The notes beneath the pieces were generated by a model. It saw only the letters and a program-made list of their open reading frames with translations. It was not told where the DNA came from and ran no database searches. Shown in pieces: positions 1 to 12,184 of a DNA stretch of 49,765 bases. The DNA lies in the NCBI GenBank assembly GCA_001829155.1, contig MIAO01000144.1, positions 1 to 49,765 on the forward strand. The letters are read 5' to 3'. Position 1 is the stretch's first letter. Each line of letters opens with the position of its first letter. A program made the translations under genes and the position numbers. The stretch comes from Spirochaetes bacterium GWB1_36_13. Lineage in GTDB: Bacteria; Spirochaetota; GWB1-36-13.

Positions 1-191
1 ATCATTTTTGGATCTGAAAAAGATTTCCTTGAATTTCTAGTAATAACTGTATATCTATACTTTGGATTAATTTTATTTTTTTTAAATGTAGATGAAATTA
101 AATCATGTAAGTATAAAATATCTTTTTTTTTCAAAGAGGTAGAGTTTATTAAGCTAATTTCCTCATTTGGAATATCAAATTCTTCAATCAA
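1..191 (-). CDS. Partial hypothetical protein; first cassette gene of the second (degenerate) integron-like platform
   Basis: TTG start at 191 preceded by AAGGAG; frame open to window edge (MIEEFDIPNEEISLINSTSLKKKDILYLHDL...); begins about 40 bp after GTTGGGT core at 234. Confidence 0.6.
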   Translation of the reverse strand, partial: MIEEFDIPNEEISLINSTSLKKKDILYLHDLISSTFKKNKINPKYRYTVITRNSRKSFSDPKM

Positions 192-225
192 ATTATTCTC
201 CTTTAAATCACATTTAACATGCATT

Positions 226-266
226 GCACCCAACTCCATATATACGACAAAACTTTCGTATATTCC
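226..266 (-). other. Putative attI-like site of second platform
   Basis: + strand gcacccAAC-tccat-atatacga-caaaactt-tcgtatat-tcc; same motif and same position (just 3' of an integrase stop) as 9700-9770; minus strand reads GTTGGGT (GTTRRRY). Confidence 0.7.
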
Positions 267-290
267 GGATACACTGGTAAAGTACGACAT

Positions 291-442
291 TTAATTATCC
301 AGCGGACTCCTTACATTTCTAATCGTCTGAGCGCTCACATGAGTATAAATCTCAGTTGTTTCACTCGATTTATGACCCAGTAATTCCTGAATCATCCTCA
401 AATCAGTTCACGCTTCTTTTTTATTTCCAATATTCTCTCCAC
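291..442 (-). pseudogene. Internally deleted integrase remnant
   Basis: GTG-ERILEIKK N-terminus nearly identical to 10834 start, fused out of frame to C-terminal [38 protein letters not shown] (cf. [39 protein letters not shown]); about 870 bp of the middle missing. Confidence 0.88.
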
Positions 443-525
443 AATTCAAAAATAAATATATAAAAAAATTTATAATAAGCAAAAAAATATTGACTCAACC
501 CTGAAAGCAGGCTAGGCGGGAAAAT

Positions 526-669
526 TTCAGATAATGTTCCCGCGATATGTGATGCTCCTGAGGCTTAGAAGGGTGCAGTCTGAGGGTCGTGAGCAGAGCG
601 AACCCCCGAAGCAAACCCTGTCCCGTCAGGGCTTGCCGATGGAGTATCATATATCGTGTGTTATGTGAA
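526..669 (-). repeat. attC-like recombination site (distal; belongs to RNase cassette)
   Basis: + strand ttcagatAAT-gttcc-cgcgatatgtgatgctcc ... ggagtatcatatatcgtg-t-GTTatgtgaa; long imperfect palindrome immediately after the stop of the 631-aa ORF. Confidence 0.8.
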
Positions 670-673
670 GGAT

Positions 674-2569
674 TTAGTTTTTAATTACTTGCTGTGTAGT
701 CTTAAAGTTTAGTTTCGCAATTTTAGTTAACTCTCCTTCTCCATTTTTTTCTATAATAGATTTTGTAACTTTTATTACCGTTTCATTTGCTCCTTTTGGA
801 ATAGTAATTCCATATTTTATTCCCATAGCTTCGATAGATGTTAAAAACCCTTCTCTTGCTAAAATAGATGCAGCTGCTACTGCAATATCTCTTTCAGCTT
901 TGTGAATTTGCAGTAACTCTATTTTTTTCCCATTTTCCATTAATGCCTTATTTATATATTCTTCATTTCCAAATTGGTCTGCAATTGCAGCTGTACAATC
1001 ATTTTTTATTAATAAGTTTTCGATTGCTCGTGCATGCCCCCATGCTAATAATTCGTTCATATTTTTCATTTTGTCGTATAACTCATTGTATTTTTCTGGA
1101 TTTATTTTAATAACACTATATTTATCTTCTCCTACAAGTCTCCTGATTTCTGGAGCCATTTCTTTAATTTTGCTATCACTTATTGTTTTACTATCTTTAA
1201 CGCCCAATGATTTTAATTTCTCGTTTGTTTCTTTATCAACATATACTCCAGCAATTACAATTGCTCCTAAGTAGTCACCTTTTCCAGATTCGTCAGTTCC
1301 AATATGTGATTCTTTTGTAAAACTTAGAAATTTTTCTTCTTTTTCTTTATTGATTTGATTAGAGTCTTTTTCTACATTTTGCACTACTAATAAATCTTTT
1401 TCTTCACTTTTATATGTTTCATCTTTTTTTGTTTGACAAATATCTTCATCCGTTAACCCCGCTCTTATCAAAATATTGTAGGCATCTCTCATACAAGCTT
1501 TTATTTCACCAACTTTATCAAATGCTTCCTCAGGATTTTGAATACAAATTATTCTTCTATCTCCTAATGGGTCAGAATGCATTTCTTTACATCTACTTCC
1601 TTCCCAAATTGCTATCATTTTTTCTAGAACATATCCATATCGTCTTTCATCTGTAATATATTTTTTAAATTTTAGTTTTCTCAATGCATTTCCTACATCG
1701 GCAATTTCAGGATTTTTCTTGTAATCTTCAATAGTGAAAAAGTCTTTTTCTATCATTATTTTTATTATAAATCCTTCATATACTTTGGCAAACTGTGCAA
1801 CTAAAAAATTATATTCATCCAATTTTTCACTTACTTTCTTAATAATTTCTACTAACGCTAATCCTGTTGAATATGTCTTCTTATCATTTTCAAACAAGTA
1901 ATCCTCAAATCCCTCTGGAAAATTTTTAACTCTTTCGTTCATCTTCAATAACATTTCTGAGTTTTCTTTAATTTCTTTCTCAATTTTATTTTTTTCTTTT
2001 GCAGAAACATAAAAAAGTGCTCTTTCCATATCATCCAAAGGCTTATAAGCATTTATTATTTCAGCAACTTTATCTATTAAGTCAGAATAAATTCCTTGAA
2101 CCACTAAATTTCCACTTTTATACAATGTAACAACACAAGAAAAGTCATAATAAGTTATTTTATATATAAATTCCTGATGTTCATGTTTTTCCAACTTCTC
2201 AATTTGAAAAGTATTTTCTATTGATTCTTTAATTATTTTTTGAATTTCAGTGTCTTGAATTTTGATTGATGCACTAACAGGAATTCTATTTTCAACTCCA
2301 TCAGGTTTTATTACTTTTAACTCTAAATTACTACAAAATATATTTTCAAAATCTTGTGTAGCCTTTTCAATTATAATTTTAGAAGAATTCTTACCTTTAA
2401 AATATATTATGATTGAAGCAAATTCTTTGGAATGTTCTATATTCAATTTATATCCACAACCGTTATTTATTTCTTTTTCTTCTATCACTTTTGCCCCAAT
2501 CTGACTTATTTTCTCTTTGACTATCATTATAGAATCTTCTTTTTGTTTTACAAATTCAATGCTTTTCAT
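674..2569 (-). CDS. RNase LS (RnlA-like, TBP-like domains + HEPN) fused to C-terminal RNase HIII-type domain
   Basis: C-terminal IGTDESGKGDY...GVKDSK...DQF...AVAAASILAR (RNase HII/HIII); TLYKSGNLVVQG TBP-like motif; middle EYNFLVAQFAKVYEGFI and R-x4-H (RCKEMH) resembling RnlA HEPN; RBS GAGGGG. Confidence 0.72.
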   Translation of the reverse strand: MKSIEFVKQKEDSIMIVKEKISQIGAKVIEEKEINNGCGYKLNIEHSKEFASIIIYFKGKNSSKIIIEKATQDFENIFCSNLELKVIKPDGVENRIPVSASIKIQDTEIQKIIKESIENTFQIEKLEKHEHQEFIYKITYYDFSCVVTLYKSGNLVVQGIYSDLIDKVAEIINAYKPLDDMERALFYVSAKEKNKIEKEIKENSEMLLKMNERVKNFPEGFEDYLFENDKKTYSTGLALVEIIKKVSEKLDEYNFLVAQFAKVYEGFIIKIMIEKDFFTIEDYKKNPEIADVGNALRKLKFKKYITDERRYGYVLEKMIAIWEGSRCKEMHSDPLGDRRIICIQNPEEAFDKVGEIKACMRDAYNILIRAGLTDEDICQTKKDETYKSEEKDLLVVQNVEKDSNQINKEKEEKFLSFTKESHIGTDESGKGDYLGAIVIAGVYVDKETNEKLKSLGVKDSKTISDSKIKEMAPEIRRLVGEDKYSVIKINPEKYNELYDKMKNMNELLAWGHARAIENLLIKNDCTAAIADQFGNEEYINKALMENGKKIELLQIHKAERDIAVAAASILAREGFLTSIEAMGIKYGITIPKGANETVIKVTKSIIEKNGEGELTKIAKLNFKTTQQVIKN

Positions 2570-2640
2570 CGTTCCCCTCTCTTTATAAAACTATTTTTAT
2601 TTTATAATATTTAGAATATAATTTCTTCGTTTTGAATCTT

Positions 2641-2804
2641 TCACCTAACATTTGCGACTATAAGACCGAGTAGGGTTTGCCATGAGCAAACCCGTAAGCG
2701 AGGCAAGGGAACGAAGTAACCGCAGCGTTCGGCTGAAAGCCGAATGTCGGGCGAAGCCCTGGAGGGCAGCTTGACTGCCCAGAGTGATAGTCGCTGTTGT
2801 GTGA
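2641..2804 (-). repeat. attC-like recombination site (belongs to membrane-protein cassette)
   Basis: + strand tcacctAAC-attt-gcgactat ... atagtcgc-t-GTTgtgtga; minus strand ends GTTAGGT; internal GC-rich sub-hairpins. Confidence 0.82.
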
Positions 2805-2815
2805 TGTAACTATTT

Positions 2816-3223
2816 TCACAGTGCGGCATTTTTCATTGGTTCTCTGTTAAAAAGATTATAAAAATAAAAACATAATACACCGATGAGAAAGGTAAAAAGG
2901 AAATTAACGATTGTGATTATTTCTATCTGTCCATTTATAATTTTAGTGAGAGAAAGCAAGATAGTTATTAACATGTGAAAAGCTCCGGATTTCACATATA
3001 CATTATTGAATGGGATTTTACTTTGTATTTTCAAAAATAATATGGAGAGGAGACCACCAATGGCTCCAACACCAACGATCAGAAAGAGCATAAAAATAAT
3101 CATTGATTTGATTTTGTCATTTTCAAATTTTATCGATCCAAGTATAATTAGATATAAAAAATTGAATATATATAAAATCATATATGCAATCATTCCGCCT
3201 AAAAATCCTTTTTTTAAATTCAT
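2816..3223 (-). CDS. Small multi-pass membrane protein, unknown function (cassette gene)
   Basis: 135 aa, about four hydrophobic segments, GGAG RBS, fills the space between two attC-like sites. Confidence 0.75.
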   Translation of the reverse strand: MNLKKGFLGGMIAYMILYIFNFLYLIILGSIKFENDKIKSMIIFMLFLIVGVGAIGGLLSILFLKIQSKIPFNNVYVKSGAFHMLITILLSLTKIINGQIEIITIVNFLFTFLIGVLCFYFYNLFNREPMKNAAL

Positions 3224-3269
3224 GTAAACTCCATGTTTTTATTTGCCGCACATTACGAAAATAGTTATT

Positions 3270-3453
3270 TCACACAATGTTCTGCGGCGAGATGCGGTAC
3301 CGAAAAGGGTAGTAGCCGCCACATACAATATTACTAACCTTAAAAATCTAAACCAAAAACTGGTGAAATAAAAGCCACATTTTTGGTATCGAGGGAAATC
3401 CGTAATTTTAGGATTTTTGATGATTTTCCCGTCATTGCGCCGCTGTTATATGA
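3270..3453 (-). repeat. attC-like recombination site (belongs to GNAT cassette)
   Basis: + strand tcacacAAT-gttct-gcggcg...ggtaccgaaaa ... ttttggtatc...cgccgc-t-GTTatatga. Confidence 0.75.
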
Positions 3454-3476
3454 TGGCGCGCATTCATTTAAAACAA

Positions 3477-4361
3477 CTATTTTAAAACAGAACAATAAAA
3501 AGGGTGGTAAAAATCTTCTTCATACCCCAATTTATTTGCAACTCTTCTTGAGCCAATATTATCAAAATTTGTTCCCCAAATTGGATTAAATCCATTTTCA
3601 AGACAATACATAATCATTGCTGCTGCTGGATATACTCCTAAACCTTGACCTCTAAAGTTTTGATCCGTTTCAATTCCAACATCAATCATATCATTTGAAA
3701 TAAATGAAGAAAATGATGTACTAACAACCATTTCGTCTTTTAGAAGGCAATAACCAATTCCTTTGCTTAAGAATTTTTCCATAGTGTCCCATGAAAAACT
3801 AGGTATGATTTTACCAGTGATTTTTATATAATTTTTCTCATCAATTCTTTTTAGTTTAAAACCTTTTGGAATCTGGTTAAAAAAGTCTTGTCGGTTGATA
3901 AATACAGATTTATTGAACTTGAATCGTACTCGTTCAAAGGCAAGAACATTTTCAGATAAAACTTTTTTTAGCGTTATTATTTTTTCATCTTGATCCAGGT
4001 TAGAGTCATTGCAAATCACTGAATAATCTTTTAGGCGATCTCCTAGCAAATTATTTAGTTTTTCATTCCAGGTATCAGGATATGTCACCAAGCGGATTTG
4101 TTTGGGTTTAGTATTAGCTTCTTTTAACATTATTTCAATCAGCTGATGATTAAATAAATCGTTGTTTTGATTTCCGCATAAAAGGGAGAATCCTGAAACA
4201 AAGTGAGAAATAAATGCCGTGTTAGGATGTTGAATATTGTCAACAAAAATAGAACCATTTTGTATTTGATCGATTACTGCTTGTGCAAACACTTTGTCAA
4301 AATTGACATCTTCAACAAGCGGCAAAACAAGATGATATTGGCTAGGTTCAATTTTAATCAT
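3477..4361 (-). CDS. GNAT family N-acetyltransferase (cassette gene)
   Basis: DVGIETDQNFRGQGLG acetyl-CoA motif and NIGSRRVANKLGY; start moved to MIKIEPSQ (4361, GGAG upstream) because the longer ORF begins inside the attC-like site. Confidence 0.85.
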   Translation of the reverse strand: MIKIEPSQYHLVLPLVEDVNFDKVFAQAVIDQIQNGSIFVDNIQHPNTAFISHFVSGFSLLCGNQNNDLFNHQLIEIMLKEANTKPKQIRLVTYPDTWNEKLNNLLGDRLKDYSVICNDSNLDQDEKIITLKKVLSENVLAFERVRFKFNKSVFINRQDFFNQIPKGFKLKRIDEKNYIKITGKIIPSFSWDTMEKFLSKGIGYCLLKDEMVVSTSFSSFISNDMIDVGIETDQNFRGQGLGVYPAAAMIMYCLENGFNPIWGTNFDNIGSRRVANKLGYEEDFYHPFYCSVLK

Positions 4362-4401
4362 AAGAAGATTACTCCATACTAAATATTTTTTTTGCGCGCT
4401 T

Positions 4402-4556
4402 TCATATAATGTTCCGTGTGTTGCCGAAGTTGCCAGCACCACAAACTTTATTTCTAAATTTACAAAATAATCCAAGCAAAACTAAATCTCCCAAATTCTA
4501 ACAAGATGCTGGCAATTTGGGTGAGCGCAGCGAACCGGCAACACACTGTTATCTGA
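4402..4556 (-). repeat. attC-like recombination site (belongs to R-M cassette)
   Basis: + strand tcatatAAT-gttcc-gtgtgttgccg-aagttgccagca ... tgctggcaattt...cggcaacacac-t-GTTatctga; arms near-identical to 7708-7872. Confidence 0.85.
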
Positions 4557-4597
4557 TGTGCCGTGCTAAATACCAATCAGTACGCCATGGATGGCGT

Positions 4598-5674
4598 TTA
4601 TTTATTTTTGTTTTGGTTTTCTAAATATTCTAAATATTTAATTATTTTTTTATATTCGATTAGTTGCATATATTCTTCCATGTAGTGATAATCTGGATTT
4701 TCATTCTCATTAATAGGTAATATTATACTCTCTTTTTCCAATCTTGTAGAACTTCTTTTATAGCCAAAATTGTATTTACCCCTTACTTTATCAGCAACAG
4801 TAGTTATAAAAGTTCCACTATATCTATTAATATTTGGACTGTATCCTAAGGTCATATCCGAAGTTGCAATAAAATCCTCAGCTTTATAAACTGAGTATCC
4901 CATAGAACCTTCTCCATTTCTTATAAATGCAATACAATTACCTTTCTGAATTAACTTATTATCTTTATTTACTTGGCACAAAACCCCATTATTTTGATTA
5001 GTTGCACCTAAATAATTAATTCCTTTTTTAGATTTGTTTAAATGATTCAAACCTTTAGATTTACCTGGTACTAACCTTTCAAAGAGTTTACCTATTTTAA
5101 ATTCTTTCCATTCTTTTTGTGATAAAAATTTCAGATTATTTGAATAATTAATACCTTCTATTTTAGACAATATATACTTCTTGTATTTTTCAATCAGAAG
5201 TTGCTCCTTATCTTGCATAAAAGATTCCATAAATTCATAGTCGGGTTTACCATTTAGATTTACAGGTAAAAGTATTTTTTCTTTTTTGATTCGATTATCG
5301 TTGATTTCACGGTTATAGCTATATTTTTCATCTAAACGCGAAACTATATTCGCAATAAATAGATAAATATATTTATTAAAATTAGGATTTTCCAATTTAG
5401 TAACATGATCACTAGCAATAAACCTATAAGGTTGGTAAAAACAAGCTCCGACACTTCCACTATTCGCAATAGATAAACAATTAGAAAAAATTCTCACATC
5501 AGATGTATTGCTTATAAAGTTATCAACTCCATTATTCAAGGCAGTTGAAGAAATATAAGGCATTTTTCCTAAAAAATGGTCATTAGTTTTAAGTCGCTTC
5601 CCTCTTTGGATATTAGGAAAAACCTCATTAATGAAAAATTCTTGCCATTTTAAACCGTTCAATCTGTTTTTCAT
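4598..5674 (-). CDS. Restriction specificity subunit (BcgIB-like, two TRDs)
   Basis: Two repeated W(Q/K)EF.I...I.LP.N....PDY..ME..M units; coupled to upstream methylase/nuclease. Confidence 0.85.
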   Translation of the reverse strand: MKNRLNGLKWQEFFINEVFPNIQRGKRLKTNDHFLGKMPYISSTALNNGVDNFISNTSDVRIFSNCLSIANSGSVGACFYQPYRFIASDHVTKLENPNFNKYIYLFIANIVSRLDEKYSYNREINDNRIKKEKILLPVNLNGKPDYEFMESFMQDKEQLLIEKYKKYILSKIEGINYSNNLKFLSQKEWKEFKIGKLFERLVPGKSKGLNHLNKSKKGINYLGATNQNNGVLCQVNKDNKLIQKGNCIAFIRNGEGSMGYSVYKAEDFIATSDMTLGYSPNINRYSGTFITTVADKVRGKYNFGYKRSSTRLEKESIILPINENENPDYHYMEEYMQLIEYKKIIKYLEYLENQNKNK

Positions 5675-5676
5675 AA

Positions 5677-7569
5677 TTATTCGTCCAACCCAAACAAATA
5701 ACCTTTGCCATGAGTTACCATATTAAACTCAAAAGTCAGGTAATCCGCCATAGTGTTTTCAAAATCCTCATCACATGGGATTTCATCATTAAAATAATAA
5801 AAAGAATGCAACCATTCATCTTCTGGCTCTATAATTGTTTTAACCATAAACCTACTTTCAGCAGGTGCATCATGTCTCCAACAAGATATTAAGCGAGCTT
5901 TTTTTTCTTTTGCTCTTTCTGTTTCTATAAGACCAATATGTTTATTAACAACAAATCCATCATCTTCAAAATTAATAAATTTACAATACTTTTCTTTTGG
6001 GTGGGGCTTGTGTGCTGTAAAAATAGCTATACATGTATTTGTACCTATCCCATAAAAAGTATTTTTATTAAGAGTTATAACACCTTCTAATGAGTGTTTT
6101 TCTAATATATTTTTTTTCACAAGTTTATCTTCATTGGTTTTCCCAACCATAGTTGATTGAGGAACAATCACTGCACATTTTGCGCCATCTGATAAAGAAT
6201 CTAATAAATGCTTGACAAAAGATATTTCAGTCAAATGCGCATTTTCTTTTACTTTTCCTTGAGAATAAGGAGGATTCATTAAACCAATTGTAAACTTATT
6301 TTTTTTAAATTCTTCAGCAGACCTATTTAAAAAATCATCACAAACAAGGTTACTTTTTCCATCTCCTCTTAAAATCATATTTGTAGTAGCAATTGAAAAC
6401 ATATCTTCTCTTACTTCTATACCAAATATTTGATCTTTTTTTATTTTATTTCTGTCTTTTGGTTCGGCTTTTTTTAACATATAGTGCATAGCTGCAATTA
6501 AAAAACTTCCTGTTCCACAACATGGGTCAAAAACAATATCAGAAGGTTGAATATCCAATAATTCACAAAACAATTCAGTAATATGTTTTGGAGTAAGTAC
6601 CACACCTAAAGTTTGACCATCGCCACCACTATACCTAATAAATTCACCATAAAATCGACCTAAAACATCTTCTGGAGTATTTGCAATGACAGATTTTAAA
6701 ATGTTATTTTTTAAGTATTCTGTAAAATATTTTAAAGGAGTCTTTTCTAATCGAGTATCTATGCGATTTAACAAAGTCCTGTCTTTTATTGTGGTGAATT
6801 GATTTAAAATTTTATCTTTTTTTGTTTCAGGTTGAACTTCTACCCTAGTCATATATGTGGAAAGTGCGTCAAATATTTTTTGCCCGTCTGTTTTTAAAGA
6901 ATCACCAATCAAGGAATCAATAGTAAATGAATTATCTTGTAACGCTAATAAAATAGCGGAAACAATAAGAGGTTTTTCTGAATCACCTAATTGGCCATAA
7001 TTTCTGAGATATTCATTAAGTTCTTTAGATTTGCTTAGAATATCTTCCAGTTCAAGAGCTTCAGCAGGTGTTTCTTTTAAAACTTGTTCTTTGTAATATT
7101 TTTCTATGTTTTCTTCAGAAAAATTTTCAAAGTTTTCAACATTTTGAAGAATCTTATACCCATTTTCATCAACATAAATAGGTTTAATTTTATGGTGTTT
7201 TTCATTTCCAGAACAACCAAAAGCAAATATTTTTTTAAAATTAGTTTTTGTAAAAATTTCTTGTGCATAATGGAGAGCTCCATTTTCAGCATAATCAGAA
7301 ATAGATTTATTATCCATTAATAATGTAAAGCCATCATCATTATCATAAATAGCTTGTTTATTTAAATCAGCTTTATCCTCAATAACAATAATAAAATCTT
7401 TTGATTTACCAACAAATTCAGGAAATCCACTTTTACCAGTTCCTTTTTTTGAAGCTGTTTTAAGGGCATCTTGTATTTCTTTTATATCGCTCCCATTTGG
7501 TGTAAATTTTATTTTTGCATTATTTAATAAATTTCCTATAAAAAAATCAGTCTTTCTTTCATTCGCCAT
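5677..7569 (-). CDS. Type IIB restriction-modification enzyme alpha subunit (BcgIA-like nuclease + N6-adenine methyltransferase)
   Basis: N-terminal ALKTASK.G.G..G.PEF...IEDK nuclease motif; DPCCGTGSFL (motif I), NPPY (motif IV); start at MANERKT with GGGG RBS (ORF track starts 7587). Confidence 0.85.
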   Translation of the reverse strand: MANERKTDFFIGNLLNNAKIKFTPNGSDIKEIQDALKTASKKGTGKSGFPEFVGKSKDFIIVIEDKADLNKQAIYDNDDGFTLLMDNKSISDYAENGALHYAQEIFTKTNFKKIFAFGCSGNEKHHKIKPIYVDENGYKILQNVENFENFSEENIEKYYKEQVLKETPAEALELEDILSKSKELNEYLRNYGQLGDSEKPLIVSAILLALQDNSFTIDSLIGDSLKTDGQKIFDALSTYMTRVEVQPETKKDKILNQFTTIKDRTLLNRIDTRLEKTPLKYFTEYLKNNILKSVIANTPEDVLGRFYGEFIRYSGGDGQTLGVVLTPKHITELFCELLDIQPSDIVFDPCCGTGSFLIAAMHYMLKKAEPKDRNKIKKDQIFGIEVREDMFSIATTNMILRGDGKSNLVCDDFLNRSAEEFKKNKFTIGLMNPPYSQGKVKENAHLTEISFVKHLLDSLSDGAKCAVIVPQSTMVGKTNEDKLVKKNILEKHSLEGVITLNKNTFYGIGTNTCIAIFTAHKPHPKEKYCKFINFEDDGFVVNKHIGLIETERAKEKKARLISCWRHDAPAESRFMVKTIIEPEDEWLHSFYYFNDEIPCDEDFENTMADYLTFEFNMVTHGKGYLFGLDE

Positions 7570-7707
7570 CTTATTCCCCAATTCCATAGTTTATGAATAA
7601 TTAGTAAGTCATTAAAATTTATAGTTTTTCTTCCCAAAAGTCATCTTTTATCTTTCTTAGCCTGCACGGATGCAGGCTCTTAATATACAAAACTCTGGCA
7701 CGGCATT

Positions 7708-7872
7708 TCAGATAACGTTCCGTGTGTTGCCGAAGTTGCCAGCCTAACATATAACACACTTTTAAATTTATTCAACAAATCACCCCAAAACCAACACCTG
7801 AAATATCAATATTGCTGGCAATTTGGGAGAGGGCGGCTCGCCCGCCCGAACCGGCAACACACTGTTATACGA
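7708..7872 (-). repeat. attC-like recombination site (belongs to TIR/cyclase cassette)
   Basis: + strand tcagatAAC-gttcc-gtgtgttgccg-aagttgccagc ... gctggcaattt...cggcaacacac-t-GTTatacga. Confidence 0.85.
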
Positions 7873-7915
7873 AGTTTTTAGCCTAAAAATAAAAAAACAT
7901 AATTAGGAATAATAA

Positions 7916-9091
7916 TTATTTTAATTTATATTCTAAAATATTTTGTTGTTTCCCGAACATAAAATCATTTAAATATTTGTAATAAAAAGAATATAATGGA
8001 GGCATATCATTAGTTTTCCATTCAACCTCAATATATGGTGTATCATCAGGAAGTATTCTAGGTAAATAATTTGAAATGTGAATAAACCCCTTGCCTTGAA
8101 AACCTTTATCAACTAAAGAAGCACCAAAAGGTATAAAGTGACTATATTCATAAATATTCAAGGTTATATTTGACTTCTGATTTAATGATTCATACCATTT
8201 TTTAATACTATCAATAGATAATGATTTTTCTTTTAAATTTAATTTTCCTACTTTAACCCCAAAAAATTCTTCTATTTGTTTTGATATTTCATCTTTGGCA
8301 TAATAAATATTTATTTTAATTTTTCTATGTTCATTAATATCAATTTGATTCAATATACTTGGTAAAGAAGGATGATAGATTCCAATAAATTCTAATTCTG
8401 CACTATGTTTTACTCGTTCAAGAAATTTTTCATCTAAATTCTTTTTTTTGGGGTAATCATTTGAATAAATATTAGTAAAATATTTTGTTAAAATCTTCGT
8501 ATTTTTACCATAATCTTTATTTTTATTACTTAAAATGATATTATAAACATTGTGTTCAAAACTATGTTTATCAATAACGGTATCTTCATCTATTAAAGTA
8601 AAAGACCAATCATCATTAATTTTAATTTTTCCACCTAAAGAGTCATTTTTTTTTCTTAAAAATTTATTATAGAAAGTTTTACTAACAATAATACCACCAT
8701 CATCAGCACCTGTAAGTATTCTTGCTGCATCATTTATTGTATTACCTATAATATTATTTTTTCGATTAATATCTTTAAGAACATTTACATCACCTACGTG
8801 AATTGCACACCTTATATCACAATCATTACTAATTGTCCAATCTATTATGCCAACAACTAATTCAAAAGATTTTAAATATGAAGAAGTCTTTATATTCTCA
8901 ATACCAGCAATAATCCCATCTCCCGTAGGAATTAAAATACAATCATTGTCAAGTATTTCATCATATAATAAATGATGAATCTCTTTCTGAAATCTTTTAA
9001 ATAAATCAATTTGTATTGGTTCATTATTTTTTGAATAACCAACTAAATCTAGATAAACAATTATATAAGATTTTGGCATGATTTTCTCCAA
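7916..9091 (-). CDS. Class III nucleotide cyclase domain fused to uncharacterised C-terminal alpha/beta domain
   Basis: YLDLVGYS, PTGDG, IRCAIHVGDV, GNTINDAARI cyclase motifs; C-terminal ~190 aa resembles DUF5919/PLD-like folds (low confidence). Confidence 0.8.
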   Translation of the reverse strand: MEKIMPKSYIIVYLDLVGYSKNNEPIQIDLFKRFQKEIHHLLYDEILDNDCILIPTGDGIIAGIENIKTSSYLKSFELVVGIIDWTISNDCDIRCAIHVGDVNVLKDINRKNNIIGNTINDAARILTGADDGGIIVSKTFYNKFLRKKNDSLGGKIKINDDWSFTLIDEDTVIDKHSFEHNVYNIILSNKNKDYGKNTKILTKYFTNIYSNDYPKKKNLDEKFLERVKHSAELEFIGIYHPSLPSILNQIDINEHRKIKINIYYAKDEISKQIEEFFGVKVGKLNLKEKSLSIDSIKKWYESLNQKSNITLNIYEYSHFIPFGASLVDKGFQGKGFIHISNYLPRILPDDTPYIEVEWKTNDMPPLYSFYYKYLNDFMFGKQQNILEYKLK

Positions 9092-9096
9092 GATAA

Positions 9097-9660
9097 TTAA
9101 TGTGTTATATTACAATTCTTACATTTACTATTATACCTCATCATATCCTGTGGATTAACAATAAATTGGTTTCTTGACGATCTTGCTTTATAAGCATCAT
9201 CAATCCAATCTCCTAATTGTTGAGGCGAATTTGGATATATATAATATCTTGCATAACAATCATTTAATTCTTTATTCCAATTTGATTCAAATCGAGGGGG
9301 TAAATATGCGCTATTTCCTTGGTTAGGTAATATTATCCCAATTAAACCATTGGGTATATAATTTATACCTTGTCTTAATGAACTTTTAATCTCCCAATCA
9401 ACATATCTTCGACTATGTGTACAACTTCCAATTAAGACAATAGTAACAGTAGTATCTTGTAAATAATCATTTCTTATTTTATTCATAACATAATCAGTAT
9501 TACTGCTATCAATAAAATCATCATTATCATTAGCACCTAATACAAAAGGTGTAAAAACGTTTTCTTGATTTGCAAAATAATCAATAAAACTATCAACTTC
9601 AACATTATCTCCTTTATAAAAAGAAATGAATACCTTTCTTTTAATACCATTATATGACAT
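9097..9660 (-). CDS. TIR domain protein (ThsB/MTH538-like, DUF1863)
   Basis: RKVFISF, IR..YL.DTTVTIVLIG, RRYVDWEI with catalytic Glu, PNGLIGI; GGAGG RBS. Confidence 0.88.
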   Translation of the reverse strand: MSYNGIKRKVFISFYKGDNVEVDSFIDYFANQENVFTPFVLGANDNDDFIDSSNTDYVMNKIRNDYLQDTTVTIVLIGSCTHSRRYVDWEIKSSLRQGINYIPNGLIGIILPNQGNSAYLPPRFESNWNKELNDCYARYYIYPNSPQQLGDWIDDAYKARSSRNQFIVNPQDMMRYNSKCKNCNITH

Positions 9661-9699
9661 TTTATTCCTCCAATTTTATTTTACATGGCTAAAAATTTT

Positions 9700-9770
9700 G
9701 TATAACTCAATATATACGAACTTCGCATATTACTCTTAATTCAATGGAATATGCGAAGTTCGTATATCCC
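9700..9770 (-). other. Putative attI-like site with perfect 20-bp inverted repeat
   Basis: gtatAAC (GTTATAC on minus) then tcaat and atatacgaacttcgcatatt (9712-9731) / aatatgcgaagttcgtatat (9748-9767); lies between integrase stop and first cassette. Confidence 0.72.
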
Positions 9771-9808
9771 TGTTTAATGGGTGTTTTTTAAGAACTTTTA
9801 TCTGTTTA

Positions 9809-10834
9809 TTATAAATCATCTATGGGGCTTCTTATATTTTTTAGTATTTTTGTGCTGACATGGGTATAAATCTCAGTTGTTTTGCTGGATTCATGACCCA
9901 ATAGTTCCTGTATTATTCTTAAATCAGTTCCGTTTTCCAGTAAATGCGTGGCAAAGCTATGTCTGAGGGAATGAATTCCTGCTTCTTTCTTTAAGCCGGA
10001 TTCTTTTATAGCATTTTCAAAAACTTTCTGTAATGAACGGGATGTAATTTTCTTTTCATTCCTCTGACCTTCAAAAAGCCAGAATTTAGGGTGATACGCA
10101 TGAAGGTATTCGTTTATATCTCTTGATACTTTATCAGACAAAAGAGTAGTTCTGTCCTTCTTCCCTTTTGCCCCTTTTATGATAAGGATTTTTCTCTCAA
10201 AATCTATATCCTGTATTCTTAAACTCACTGTTTCACTCACACGCAGACCCGCTGAATAAGTGATGGAAAGCATGAGTTTATGCTTGAGATTTTTAACGGA
10301 ATCAATCAGCCTTTTGACCTCTTCTTTACTCAGTACGACAGGTAGTTTTTTTTCTTTTTTAGCCCGTTTGATCTGATAAATAAAATTCTTGCCGAGAATA
10401 CTGCCATAATAAAACCTCAGAGCATTCATGGCACAGTTAAGAGTTGAAGCCGTTGCTTCTTTTTTATCGGCTAGGTAATCCAGATAATTTTTAATATCTG
10501 TTTGATTAATAAAATCGGGGGTTTTACCTGTAAAGGTCAATAGTTCTTTGTTATAAAATGTATATGATTTACTTGTTCTTAAACTATAGCCACGGATACG
10601 GGTTTCTTGAGCAATGGAATCTTTTAGTGGGACTAATTCGGATCCGAAAGAGACTTTAAAATGTTTTTCAAGGTAGTCTCTATTAGAGAGATTATCAGGA
10701 ATAATCCATATTTTTTTGTCAGAAACCCATTTTCTGCCGGATATTTTACGGATGAGTTCAATCAAAGAGGGATTGTATTCAATACTAACTTCAAGCATTC
10801 CGTTATTCTTTTTTATTTCCAATATTCTCTCCAC
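9809..10834 (-). CDS. Tyrosine recombinase, integron-integrase-like, lacking IntI-specific insertion, with extra N-terminal domain
   Basis: [40 protein letters not shown] (R-K-H-R-H-Y intact); SAM-like region RGYSLRTSKSY...ASTLNCAMNALRF; KLPVVLSKEEV. Confidence 0.92.
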   Translation of the reverse strand: MERILEIKKNNGMLEVSIEYNPSLIELIRKISGRKWVSDKKIWIIPDNLSNRDYLEKHFKVSFGSELVPLKDSIAQETRIRGYSLRTSKSYTFYNKELLTFTGKTPDFINQTDIKNYLDYLADKKEATASTLNCAMNALRFYYGSILGKNFIYQIKRAKKEKKLPVVLSKEEVKRLIDSVKNLKHKLMLSITYSAGLRVSETVSLRIQDIDFERKILIIKGAKGKKDRTTLLSDKVSRDINEYLHAYHPKFWLFEGQRNEKKITSRSLQKVFENAIKESGLKKEAGIHSLRHSFATHLLENGTDLRIIQELLGHESSKTTEIYTHVSTKILKNIRSPIDDL

Positions 10835-10848
10835 ATTTCCAAATTAAA

Positions 10849-10877
10849 AATATAACCAAAATCGATAGAGCAATCAA
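10849..10877 (-). promoter_or_regulatory. Possible sigma70-type integrase promoter
   Basis: TTGATT-17 nt-TATATT on minus strand, 14 nt before GTG; remnant copy has TTGCTT-16 nt-TATATT at the equivalent position. Confidence 0.4.
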
Positions 10878-10963
10878 AAAAATATTGAGTTCAGGTTTTT
10901 CTTGTTAGATTTTTCCCATAGGATCAAAGCTTAAGTCTTAAAGGACAAGACAGGATTTATTTA

Positions 10964-11636
10964 GTCGACCCTGAAAAACTCATTTTTCAAGTTCAAAAAG
11001 CTCAAAGATTTTTTGCCCACAAACCCCCATCCCCTTATCTCCCAGAGGAAGACAAGGGGAGTTTTAGGAATTACAGTATTGTTTTTCAATAATAATTTAT
11101 TTACATTACCTAACGGTAAAAAAGGAAATTAATTTCAAAATTCCTTCTATTCAGGTTTCTCATTTTATTTTCATTTTAGCATTCATCTGCCCCTCCGTTC
11201 GGCGTCCTGCCGAAAGTCGGGAAATCTTTTTTCTGTTTGGAATTCTCGTATGCAAATTCTCCTAATTTGCATTAAAACCATTTATTATCAAGAATTATTT
11301 TAAGACTTTTATCTCTTTAACCCTGCACGAGGCAGGGTTTCCTCCGTCCGACTTGATTTCACGGATGAAATCACGGAGGACTCCCCCTTGTCCTTAAAGA
11401 TTTAAGGATAAGGGGTTAGGGGTTTGGATTTGAAACCCGCTGGAATAGTCTTAAAATAAGCTGATTCGAGTCCAATCAGAATAAATCTTCAAGACAGTTC
11501 AAAAAAGAATGTGCTGAAAAAACCTCGATTTTTACCAGATTATTGACAAAAGAATAAAAAAACTTGCAAAATTTTTGACTCTTTTTTATAAATTTTTCTT
11601 TACTGTAAAAGATTTCTTGACTTTTTCAGGGTCGAC
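10964..11636. mobile_element. Non-autonomous MITE-like element (673 bp)
   Basis: Terminal inverted repeats gtcgaccctgaaaaa(c/g)tca (15 bp perfect, 18/19), flanked by direct repeat tattta (10958-10963, 11637-11642); no long ORF; nested internal inverted repeats. Confidence 0.8.
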
Positions 11637-12184
11637 TATTTAAATAACTGGTTGAAAGTGTCTTTTGAAAACTGGTGGTTGATAATCTCGGTTTCTTCTG
11701 CCGGATCTTCCGGTTCCTGAGTGAAAAAATAATGAAAACTGATAAACTCTTCCTCTTTCTGAAATCCGAATTTCTGGTAGAGTTTTTGAGCGTTTGAATT
11801 CTCCAGTGCGGTGGAAAGGGTGAGGCCTTTTGCATTTTGATTCCGGGCAAATTCCTTCGCGCGGGTTAAGAGGGCAAAGGCGATTCCTTCTTTTCGAAAC
11901 GGTTCATCGACAAAAAGGTCGTTTAAAATCAGAAGCGGTTTCATCGATACGGAGGAAAAAGTGGGGTAGAGCTGGGTAAACCCGAAGACTATTTTAGGAT
12001 CATTAAAATCATGCGCAAAAAACAAATAAGACTCTTGATTTTGAAACCTCTCCATCAAAAAGGCTCCGGCTCCTGAGAGAAAACTTTTTTGCCCGTAAAA
12101 AATCCTGTATTGGTCAAAAAGCGGAGCAATCAGAGAAATATCTGTCAATTCAGCTTCTTTAATCTTAAATTGAAAATTTTTCAT
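11636..12184 (-). CDS. GNAT family N-acetyltransferase
   Basis: LFDQYRIFY, FTQLYPTFSSVSM, LNDLFV.EPFRKEGIA, NSNAQKLYQKFGF. Confidence 0.88.
   Translation of the reverse strand: MKNFQFKIKEAELTDISLIAPLFDQYRIFYGQKSFLSGAGAFLMERFQNQESYLFFAHDFNDPKIVFGFTQLYPTFSSVSMKPLLILNDLFVDEPFRKEGIAFALLTRAKEFARNQNAKGLTLSTALENSNAQKLYQKFGFQKEEEFISFHYFFTQEPEDPAEETEIINHQFSKDTFNQLFK

Follow-up and report, generated by a model that had tools for sequence, protein, structure and literature searches.

Closest described systems and the fusion protein

TOTE conflict systems were reportedly described by Aravind, Iyer and Burroughs in 2022. The name stands for TPR, OB, TBP and Effector, and RNase H domains are frequent in these systems (available part of 10.1101/2025.09.15.676423); an experimental test of any TOTE system was not found in the literature searched. 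Another close comparison is offered by the RnlA/LsoA toxins. In E. coli RnlA, residues R255, E258, R318 and H323 are all required for activity and the resting dimer is inactive (available part of PMC8266594). RNase HI stimulates this toxin via its second TBP lobe by an unexplained route, and direct RnlA-RNase HI binding was undetected in vitro by the authors (available part of PMC5308261). Hybrids are bound by the TBP lobe of RNase H3, and RNA by those of RnlA. Moreover, an RNase LS HEPN domain with an N-terminal viroplasmin/RNase HI-type domain was described in 2013, with targeting of RNA in DNA-RNA duplexes proposed for it (available part of Anantharaman et al. 2013, PMC3710099). In the literature searched, no RnlA with an RNase HIII fused to its C-terminus was described; the TOTE review or the PMC3710099 supplement might contain one.

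In a sequence-only reading of the window (i.e., the whole 49,765-nucleotide stretch analysed here, from contig MIAO01000144.1 of Spirochaetes bacterium GWB1_36_13), a single gene had been proposed to join two TBP-like N-terminal segments, an RnlA-like region with an RCKEMH motif, a charged linker and a complete RNase HIII-type domain. All of these parts were recovered in the present analysis, as follows:

674-2569, minus strand: fusion gene, 631 aa (open reading frame, model and structural matches)
2318-2569, minus strand: TBP-like lobe 1, residues 1-84, equivalent of the RnlA NTD (RnlA 6y2r alignment over model residues 10-365)
2036-2290, minus strand: TBP-like lobe 2, residues 94-178, equivalent of the RnlA NRD (match to the 4py5 TBP domain)
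1460-1906, minus strand: RnlA/LsoA-type HEPN domain, residues 222-370, with K262-x-x-E265 (profile, structure and alignment)
1577-1594, minus strand: HEPN R-x4-H motif, R326-H331, RCKEMH (sequence, and conservation in fusions)
1310-1459, minus strand: charged, poorly conserved linker, residues 371-420 (pLDDT < 50 at residues 385-398)
677-1309, minus strand: RNase HIII catalytic domain, residues 421-631, with D426, E427, D531 and E559 (TIGR00716; alignment to 2d0a and 4py5)

The gene contains no internal stops, and its product is ordered TBP-TBP-HEPN-linker-RNase HIII. A contig from run X1, which may be the window's own source sample, spans window positions 484-3305 with zero differences and speaks against a join artefact, a support that is not independent. 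In one public protein set, only the last 226 aa of the open reading frame were present. The model of the N-terminal part (residues 1-375) reached a mean pLDDT of 84.6, and the full-length model a pTM of 0.58, with the packing of the domains not fixed by the model.

Comparison of the profiles of both TBP lobes (HHalign probability of 97.3%) indicates that they are duplicates of each other, and lobe 2 matched the TBP domain of an RNase H3 (4py5; Z 9.7, rmsd 1.7, 68 residues aligned). Profile search and HHalign gave no signal for a third TBP lobe in the linker of the fusion's own clade. For longer forms of 660-770 aa, a third lobe preceding the RNase HIII domain was absent from the profile search and weak in HHalign (E 6.5e-4, probability 27%), which is suggestive only.

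When the N-terminal model was compared with 48,161 chains, the top three matches were RnlA 7aex (Z 16.8, rmsd 4.3, 246 aligned), RnlA 6y2r (Z 15.9, rmsd 11.1, 310 aligned) and LsoA 5hy3 (Z 11.6, rmsd 6.1, 230 aligned), with TBP domains from two RNase H3 structures coming next and the best unrelated row having a Z of 9.1. Foldseek matched the full model to RnlA 6y2p (E 7e-10), and the top clusters of a language-model search were RnlA families (score 0.93). The RnlA Pfam models did not match the fusion protein at E<=1 and no PADLOC model matched residues 1-375; RnlA_toxin was weakly matched by 8 of 12 close relatives, with P0027 among the relatives passing cut-offs, and a profile built from 15 relatives matched LsoA (E 0.0016) with both catalytic motifs aligned. 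K262, E265, R326 and H331 are spaced like R255, E258, R318 and H323 of RnlA, the R255 equivalent being K or R in 37 of 46 fusions and in 29 of 33 unfused relatives. The middle region is, as modelled, an RnlA-type HEPN domain, for which endoribonuclease activity and toxicity are only predicted. The protein shares with RnlA/LsoA the TBP-TBP-HEPN fold, the equal spacing of the E-R-H catalytic residues and a functional link to RNase H, but differs in its ~15% identity, the K replacing R255 and the lack of RnlB; and whereas RnlA uses host RNase HI in trans, the window protein has a type 3 domain fused to its C-terminus. Like the fusions of PMC3710099 (as far as the source is available), it is a two-headed RNase combining an RNase LS HEPN domain with an RNase H, but those carry an N-terminal type 1 RNase H and have an RnlB operon partner (as in locus L005), whereas the RNase HIII of the window protein is C-terminal and accompanied by two TBP lobes.

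Residues 421-628 scored 216.3 bits against TIGR00716 (rnhC; cut-off 161.2), and the best solved matches to the C-terminal domain were all RNase HIII. D426, E427, D531 and E559 align with D97, E98, D202 and E232 of 2d0a, which we take to be its catalytic residues. In the structural alignment with RNase HIII (Geobacillus 2d0a, Thermovibrio 4py5, Aquifex 3vn5), the catalytic domain is 33% identical, and the four acids and a TBP lobe of the same fold are shared. However, rnhC has a single TBP domain directly before its catalytic domain, whereas in the fusion ~240 residues of HEPN domain and linker lie between the TBP lobes and the catalytic domain; the fusion is moreover mobile and sporadic.

The integron-like cassette

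The fusion gene forms the fifth of five cassettes that follow a tyrosine recombinase gene, and the cassette itself (2648-535) consists of a 79 nt leader, the open reading frame, 7 nt and an attC-like hairpin (666-529). Its borders and the head of the array are as follows:

2643-2802, minus strand: attC-like site of the preceding cassette, with the crossover at 2649/2648 opening the fusion cassette (-31.6 kcal/mol, z -3.7)
2570-2648, minus strand: cassette leader, 79 nt, with a purine-rich ribosome-binding site (cassette analysis)
529-666, minus strand: attC-like site closing the fusion cassette, with right core ATT, not GTT (hairpin of -22.7 kcal/mol, z -1.9 vs. base shuffles)
9809-10834, minus strand: tyrosine recombinase at the head of the array, in the same orientation as the cassettes (NF040815, TIGR02249)

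The recombinase scored 234.6 bits against NF040815 (cut-off 220) and 226.8 bits against TIGR02249, the latter below its cut-off of 265 and matched in two stretches. IntI integrases carry an insertion, and the two-stretch match is as expected if the array recombinase is without it. An attI-like core was located at ~9700-9706, and every cassette of the array ends in a hairpin element of 138-180 nt. All five cassette starts match their own left core region at 8-9 of 10 bases (9 of 10 for the fusion cassette), and the fusion cassette has the weakest hairpin (z -1.9, the other four ranging from -3.7 to -4.5). ATT replaces the usual GTT at the right core in three of the five attC-like sites (529-535, 3272-3278 and 4404-4410). 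Joints in X1 with sides of <=32 letters were excluded as evidence for cassette excision, and an Rfam scan of window positions 1-12000 yielded no match.

The earlier claim that the cassette is a single-gene unit leaving no room for a partner agrees with the search for a second gene, which gave none of >=30 aa beyond short antisense frames and one 35-aa out-of-frame reading frame inside the gene. The leader contained no promoter above chance (13 promoter-like sites vs. 11.5 +/- 3.4 expected). The other cassettes hold a ThsB-like TIR plus a cyclase-like gene, a type IIG restriction-modification pair, a GNAT gene and a small reading frame; in the first cassette (7916-9660), the ThsB-like TIR is accompanied by a protein with a weak cyclase match.

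Internally deleted integrase gene copies, with the start joined to the 3' end, lie directly after the fusion cassette (window 293-468) and on another contig of the genome (G000:C31), and a MITE-like element of ~690 bp (10955-11645) has 28-nt terminal inverted repeats and ends that are found again on many of the genome's contigs.

The fusion family and its usual partner

A search with residues 1-375 returned 89 representatives at 50% clustering plus 11 closer proteins; 79 proteins of >=300 aa were aligned out of 99 collected. The RNase HIII motif was present in 46 of these 79, query included, so that the architecture recurs, and 46 is a floor because some apparently unfused rows end at contig ends. 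The fusions keep E265 (44 of 46), R326 (46 of 46) and H331 (43 of 46), and among the 44 complete RNase H domains the third acid is invariant and the fourth is E in 41. In the nearest relatives, identity amounts to 54-65% for the HEPN domain vs. 52-61% for the RNase H domain, so that the former is as conserved as the latter. One clade of fusions (P0054, P0071 and P0091) has lost the HEPN histidine and keeps the RNase H site.

The N-terminal profile found one homolog among 300 genomes of the same phylum, and no match occurred in plasmids, phages and viral contigs. The genes beside the relatives include type I restriction-modification, QatC and AbiE genes, and the fusion's own array holds the ThsB-like TIR and type IIG restriction-modification cassettes. 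The host genome (93% complete) carries open frames for RNase HI (rnhA, on C1) and RNase HII (rnhB, on C10). These defence neighbours, together with the RNase H genes already present in the host, support the predicted defence role. Several relatives are labelled 'ribonuclease HIII' in their sources, just as had been foreseen for automated annotation, and these names and the score above the rnhC equivalog cut-off would suit a housekeeping RNase HIII with a passenger N-terminus. However, a housekeeping role is unlikely because the host carries separate rnhA and rnhB; moreover, the gene is a mobile cassette, the N-terminal profile found nothing in 60 relatives, and the HEPN residues are strongly conserved, which makes the passenger scenario very improbable.

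Loci were obtained from two retrievals (6 and 35 loci) and from genome searches, and every locus was re-searched in six frames. Among 19 loci with a fusion or possible fusion, L013 and L014 (split by IS) and L019 and L032 (contig ends) were excluded, leaving 15 intact ones. An adjacent TPR-cold-shock/OB gene was found in 12 of these 15, corresponding to about seven lineages once near-copies are reduced. It lies downstream of the fusion in L010, L012, L015, L017, L018, L020, L022, L029, L030, L031 and L033 (at -7 to +38 nt) and upstream in L008; in L062 it overlaps upstream. The gene stops at 216 aa in L015 and is cut by the contig in L033. Its product matches TPR, DUF7017 (above cut-off) and CSD models, with S1CSD-TOTE-2 reaching 24.7 bits, below its cut-off of 27.

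RnlB was next to none of the 15 intact fusions and was lacking from the window's cassette, so the claimed lack of this antitoxin held. RnlB was confined to unfused loci, mostly those with a viroplasmin-RNase HI-TBP-HEPN gene. Our own three-sequence RnlB profile recovered eight RnlB genes in unfused loci, whereas its best match in the host genome had an E of 0.084; a PF15933 search was empty, but its controls were also silent. Since 12 of 15 fusion loci have the adjacent TPR-cold-shock/OB gene, the family belongs to the predicted TOTE class, and the gene missing from the window is that partner, not an RnlB antitoxin. The description of the fusion as self-contained therefore applies to this single-gene cassette, but not to the family norm. 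With TOTE systems, the window protein shares TBP domains, an effector and an RNase H, and its relatives adjoin the TPR-cold-shock/OB gene; it differs in that the window copy is without a TPR-OB gene and has HEPN and RNase HIII in one chain. Pfam TBP-TOTE (PF22721) had no match in the host genome, where its controls were silent as well.

The HEPN family meets RNase H in three layouts, i.e., fused to RNase HIII, beside a separate RNase HIII gene (L006, L057), or beside a viroplasmin-RNase HI-TBP-HEPN gene (L005, L021, L024). In L057 (4139-7536, minus strand; G277:C72, from the host's phylum), TBP-TBP-HEPN, RNase HIII and TPR-OB are three genes in one integron-like cassette of ~3.5 kb, with complementary ends and an integrase fragment upstream. 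In L006 of Candidatus Methanovorans (5971-7673), a TBP-HEPN gene overlaps a separate TBP-RNase HIII gene, and the TPR-OB partner was not found. In gut Bacillota (L005:5977-10195, L024:2389-6601 and L021), the loci have lost the RNase HIII domain; the HEPN gene and the TPR-cold-shock gene there flank a viroplasmin-RNase HI-TBP-HEPN gene and RnlB, giving two HEPN toxins and one RnlB. Some relatives with a TPR gene have no adjoining RNase H (L009).

Further variants were observed. In L063 (4910-7213, minus strand; G560:C169), a Ser/Thr kinase replaces HEPN in a TBP-TBP-kinase-RNase HIII gene that is followed by a TPR-cold-shock gene and has kinase-SNF2 helicase and DUF1156 genes as neighbours. 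The language-model search also returned a Lon protease/RNase HII cluster with 173 members, and the effector slot of the scaffold looks swappable. Finally, L034-L044 are stand-alone HEPN relatives of 160-220 aa, several of which adjoin ribosomal protein gene clusters on low-GC contigs.

Copies without the partner and their possible function

Like the window copy, L011, L016 and L069 showed no TPR-cold-shock gene on either visible side (just 348 nt, holding the start of another gene, being visible downstream in L011), and genome G987 gave no partner match whatsoever. In the host genome (93% complete), searches with a protein sequence, two profiles and a Pfam model turned up no full-length partner, only short generic TPR matches and a weak S1CSD-TOTE-2 match. 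The latter was rejected as a partner, as it lies in a protein that we take to be Rho. On a 26-row tree, presence and absence of the partner required at least three changes, forced by starred branches, and partner loss was no more clustered than expected from label shuffling, in which 148 of 500 shuffles needed as few changes. Grouping of the partner-free copies into one clade was unsupported, with one change occurring in 0% of 200 bootstrap trees.

By its gene content, the window copy is best described as a putative TOTE-derived effector in a one-gene cassette, i.e., neither an RnlAB system nor a complete TOTE system, the latter because the TPR-OB gene is absent from the cassette and the genome searches did not recover it. 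The protein is probably an anti-phage RNase, of the predicted TOTE class, reduced to a minimal form. With roughly even confidence, we regard the cassette as an anti-phage system of TOTE type and predicted function that has been streamlined to one gene and in which the TPR-cold-shock partner is no longer needed. In favour of this streamlining count the RnlA-like fold and residue spacing, the RNase HI stimulation and inactive resting dimer known from E. coli RnlA, the apparently intact and conserved catalytic sets, the host rnhA and rnhB, the sporadic distribution and the defence neighbours, as well as the repeated partner loss with both motifs kept (L011, L016, L069) and the pairing of HEPN with RNase H in three layouts. 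Integron cassettes are moreover described as favouring streamlined defence variants, which are common in integrons (available part of 10.1101/2024.07.02.601686). Against streamlining, retention of the partner in 12 of 15 intact loci implies that most copies appear to use it, and the full three-gene system fits one cassette in L057, so that cassette size alone did not force its loss. Unclustered loss would also be expected under repeated decay, and K262 in place of the essential R255, TPR loci without RNase H (L009), the three histidine-less fusions and the domain packing left open by the full-length model likewise count against it.

The same retention of the partner, together with the failure to find a full-length one in the host genome, would fit an orphaned TOTE effector, in which the TPR-cold-shock protein senses infection and acts as activator, the HEPN domain stays off without it, and at most an extra hybrid-cutting RNase HIII is left; the IS insertion in L013 shows that such loci do decay. 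However, the HEPN R-x4-H motif and the RNase H acids are kept in all four partner-free copies, and the cassette ends are tight around the single gene, suggesting capture in single-gene form, so that we consider an orphan somewhat doubtful.

A third scenario assigns the TPR-cold-shock protein the role of antitoxin, with the lone gene being toxic and surviving through poor expression deep in the array. RnlA is indeed toxic without RnlB (available parts of PMC5308261 and PMC8266594), the absence of RnlB beside all 15 fusions would lead one to expect another inhibitor, and the promoter content of the leader was not above chance. Silencing by the array would not apply to L011, L016 and L069, however, which showed no integrase match and lie outside integrase-bearing loci, and three Bacillota lineages carry RnlB and the TPR gene together (L005, L021, L024). 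A silenced toxin is accordingly rather improbable.

Returning to the streamlined anti-phage system, a tentative form of it is one-protein immunity, in which the TBP lobes and RNase HIII would read phage RNA:DNA hybrids and switch on the RnlA-type HEPN dimer with neither an antitoxin nor a TPR partner; this we deem less likely than not. The streamlined effector as such probably acts first on RNA:DNA hybrids and next on single-stranded RNA in the course of an infection. Its HEPN half would rest as an inactive dimer, as free RnlA does, and the TBP lobes would bind RNA:DNA hybrids accumulating while the phage replicates or is transcribed. The tethered RNase HIII might then cut the RNA strand, replacing the RNase HI needed in trans by E. 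coli RnlA, and hybrid binding and cutting would trigger or feed the HEPN domains, which would form an active dimer and cut single-stranded RNA. Infection would be stopped by destruction of phage RNA and arrest of the cell. Expression at array position 5 is predicted to be low until the cassette moves forward. That the RNase H half regulates the toxin or senses hybrids, as the sequence-only reading had put forward, would be an extrapolation from E. coli RnlA biology.

The fusion family is undercounted in defence inventories because its members are named 'ribonuclease HIII' and are missed by PADLOC, and its one-gene version offers the simplest entry to TOTE systems. As a natural fusion with both active sites on one chain, each half can be disabled by point mutation, and the coupling of RnlA to RNase H is therefore directly testable. 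If one-protein immunity proved true, the fusion would provide the first functional demonstration of a TOTE-type effector, and an internal version of the unexplained dependence of RnlA on RNase HI.
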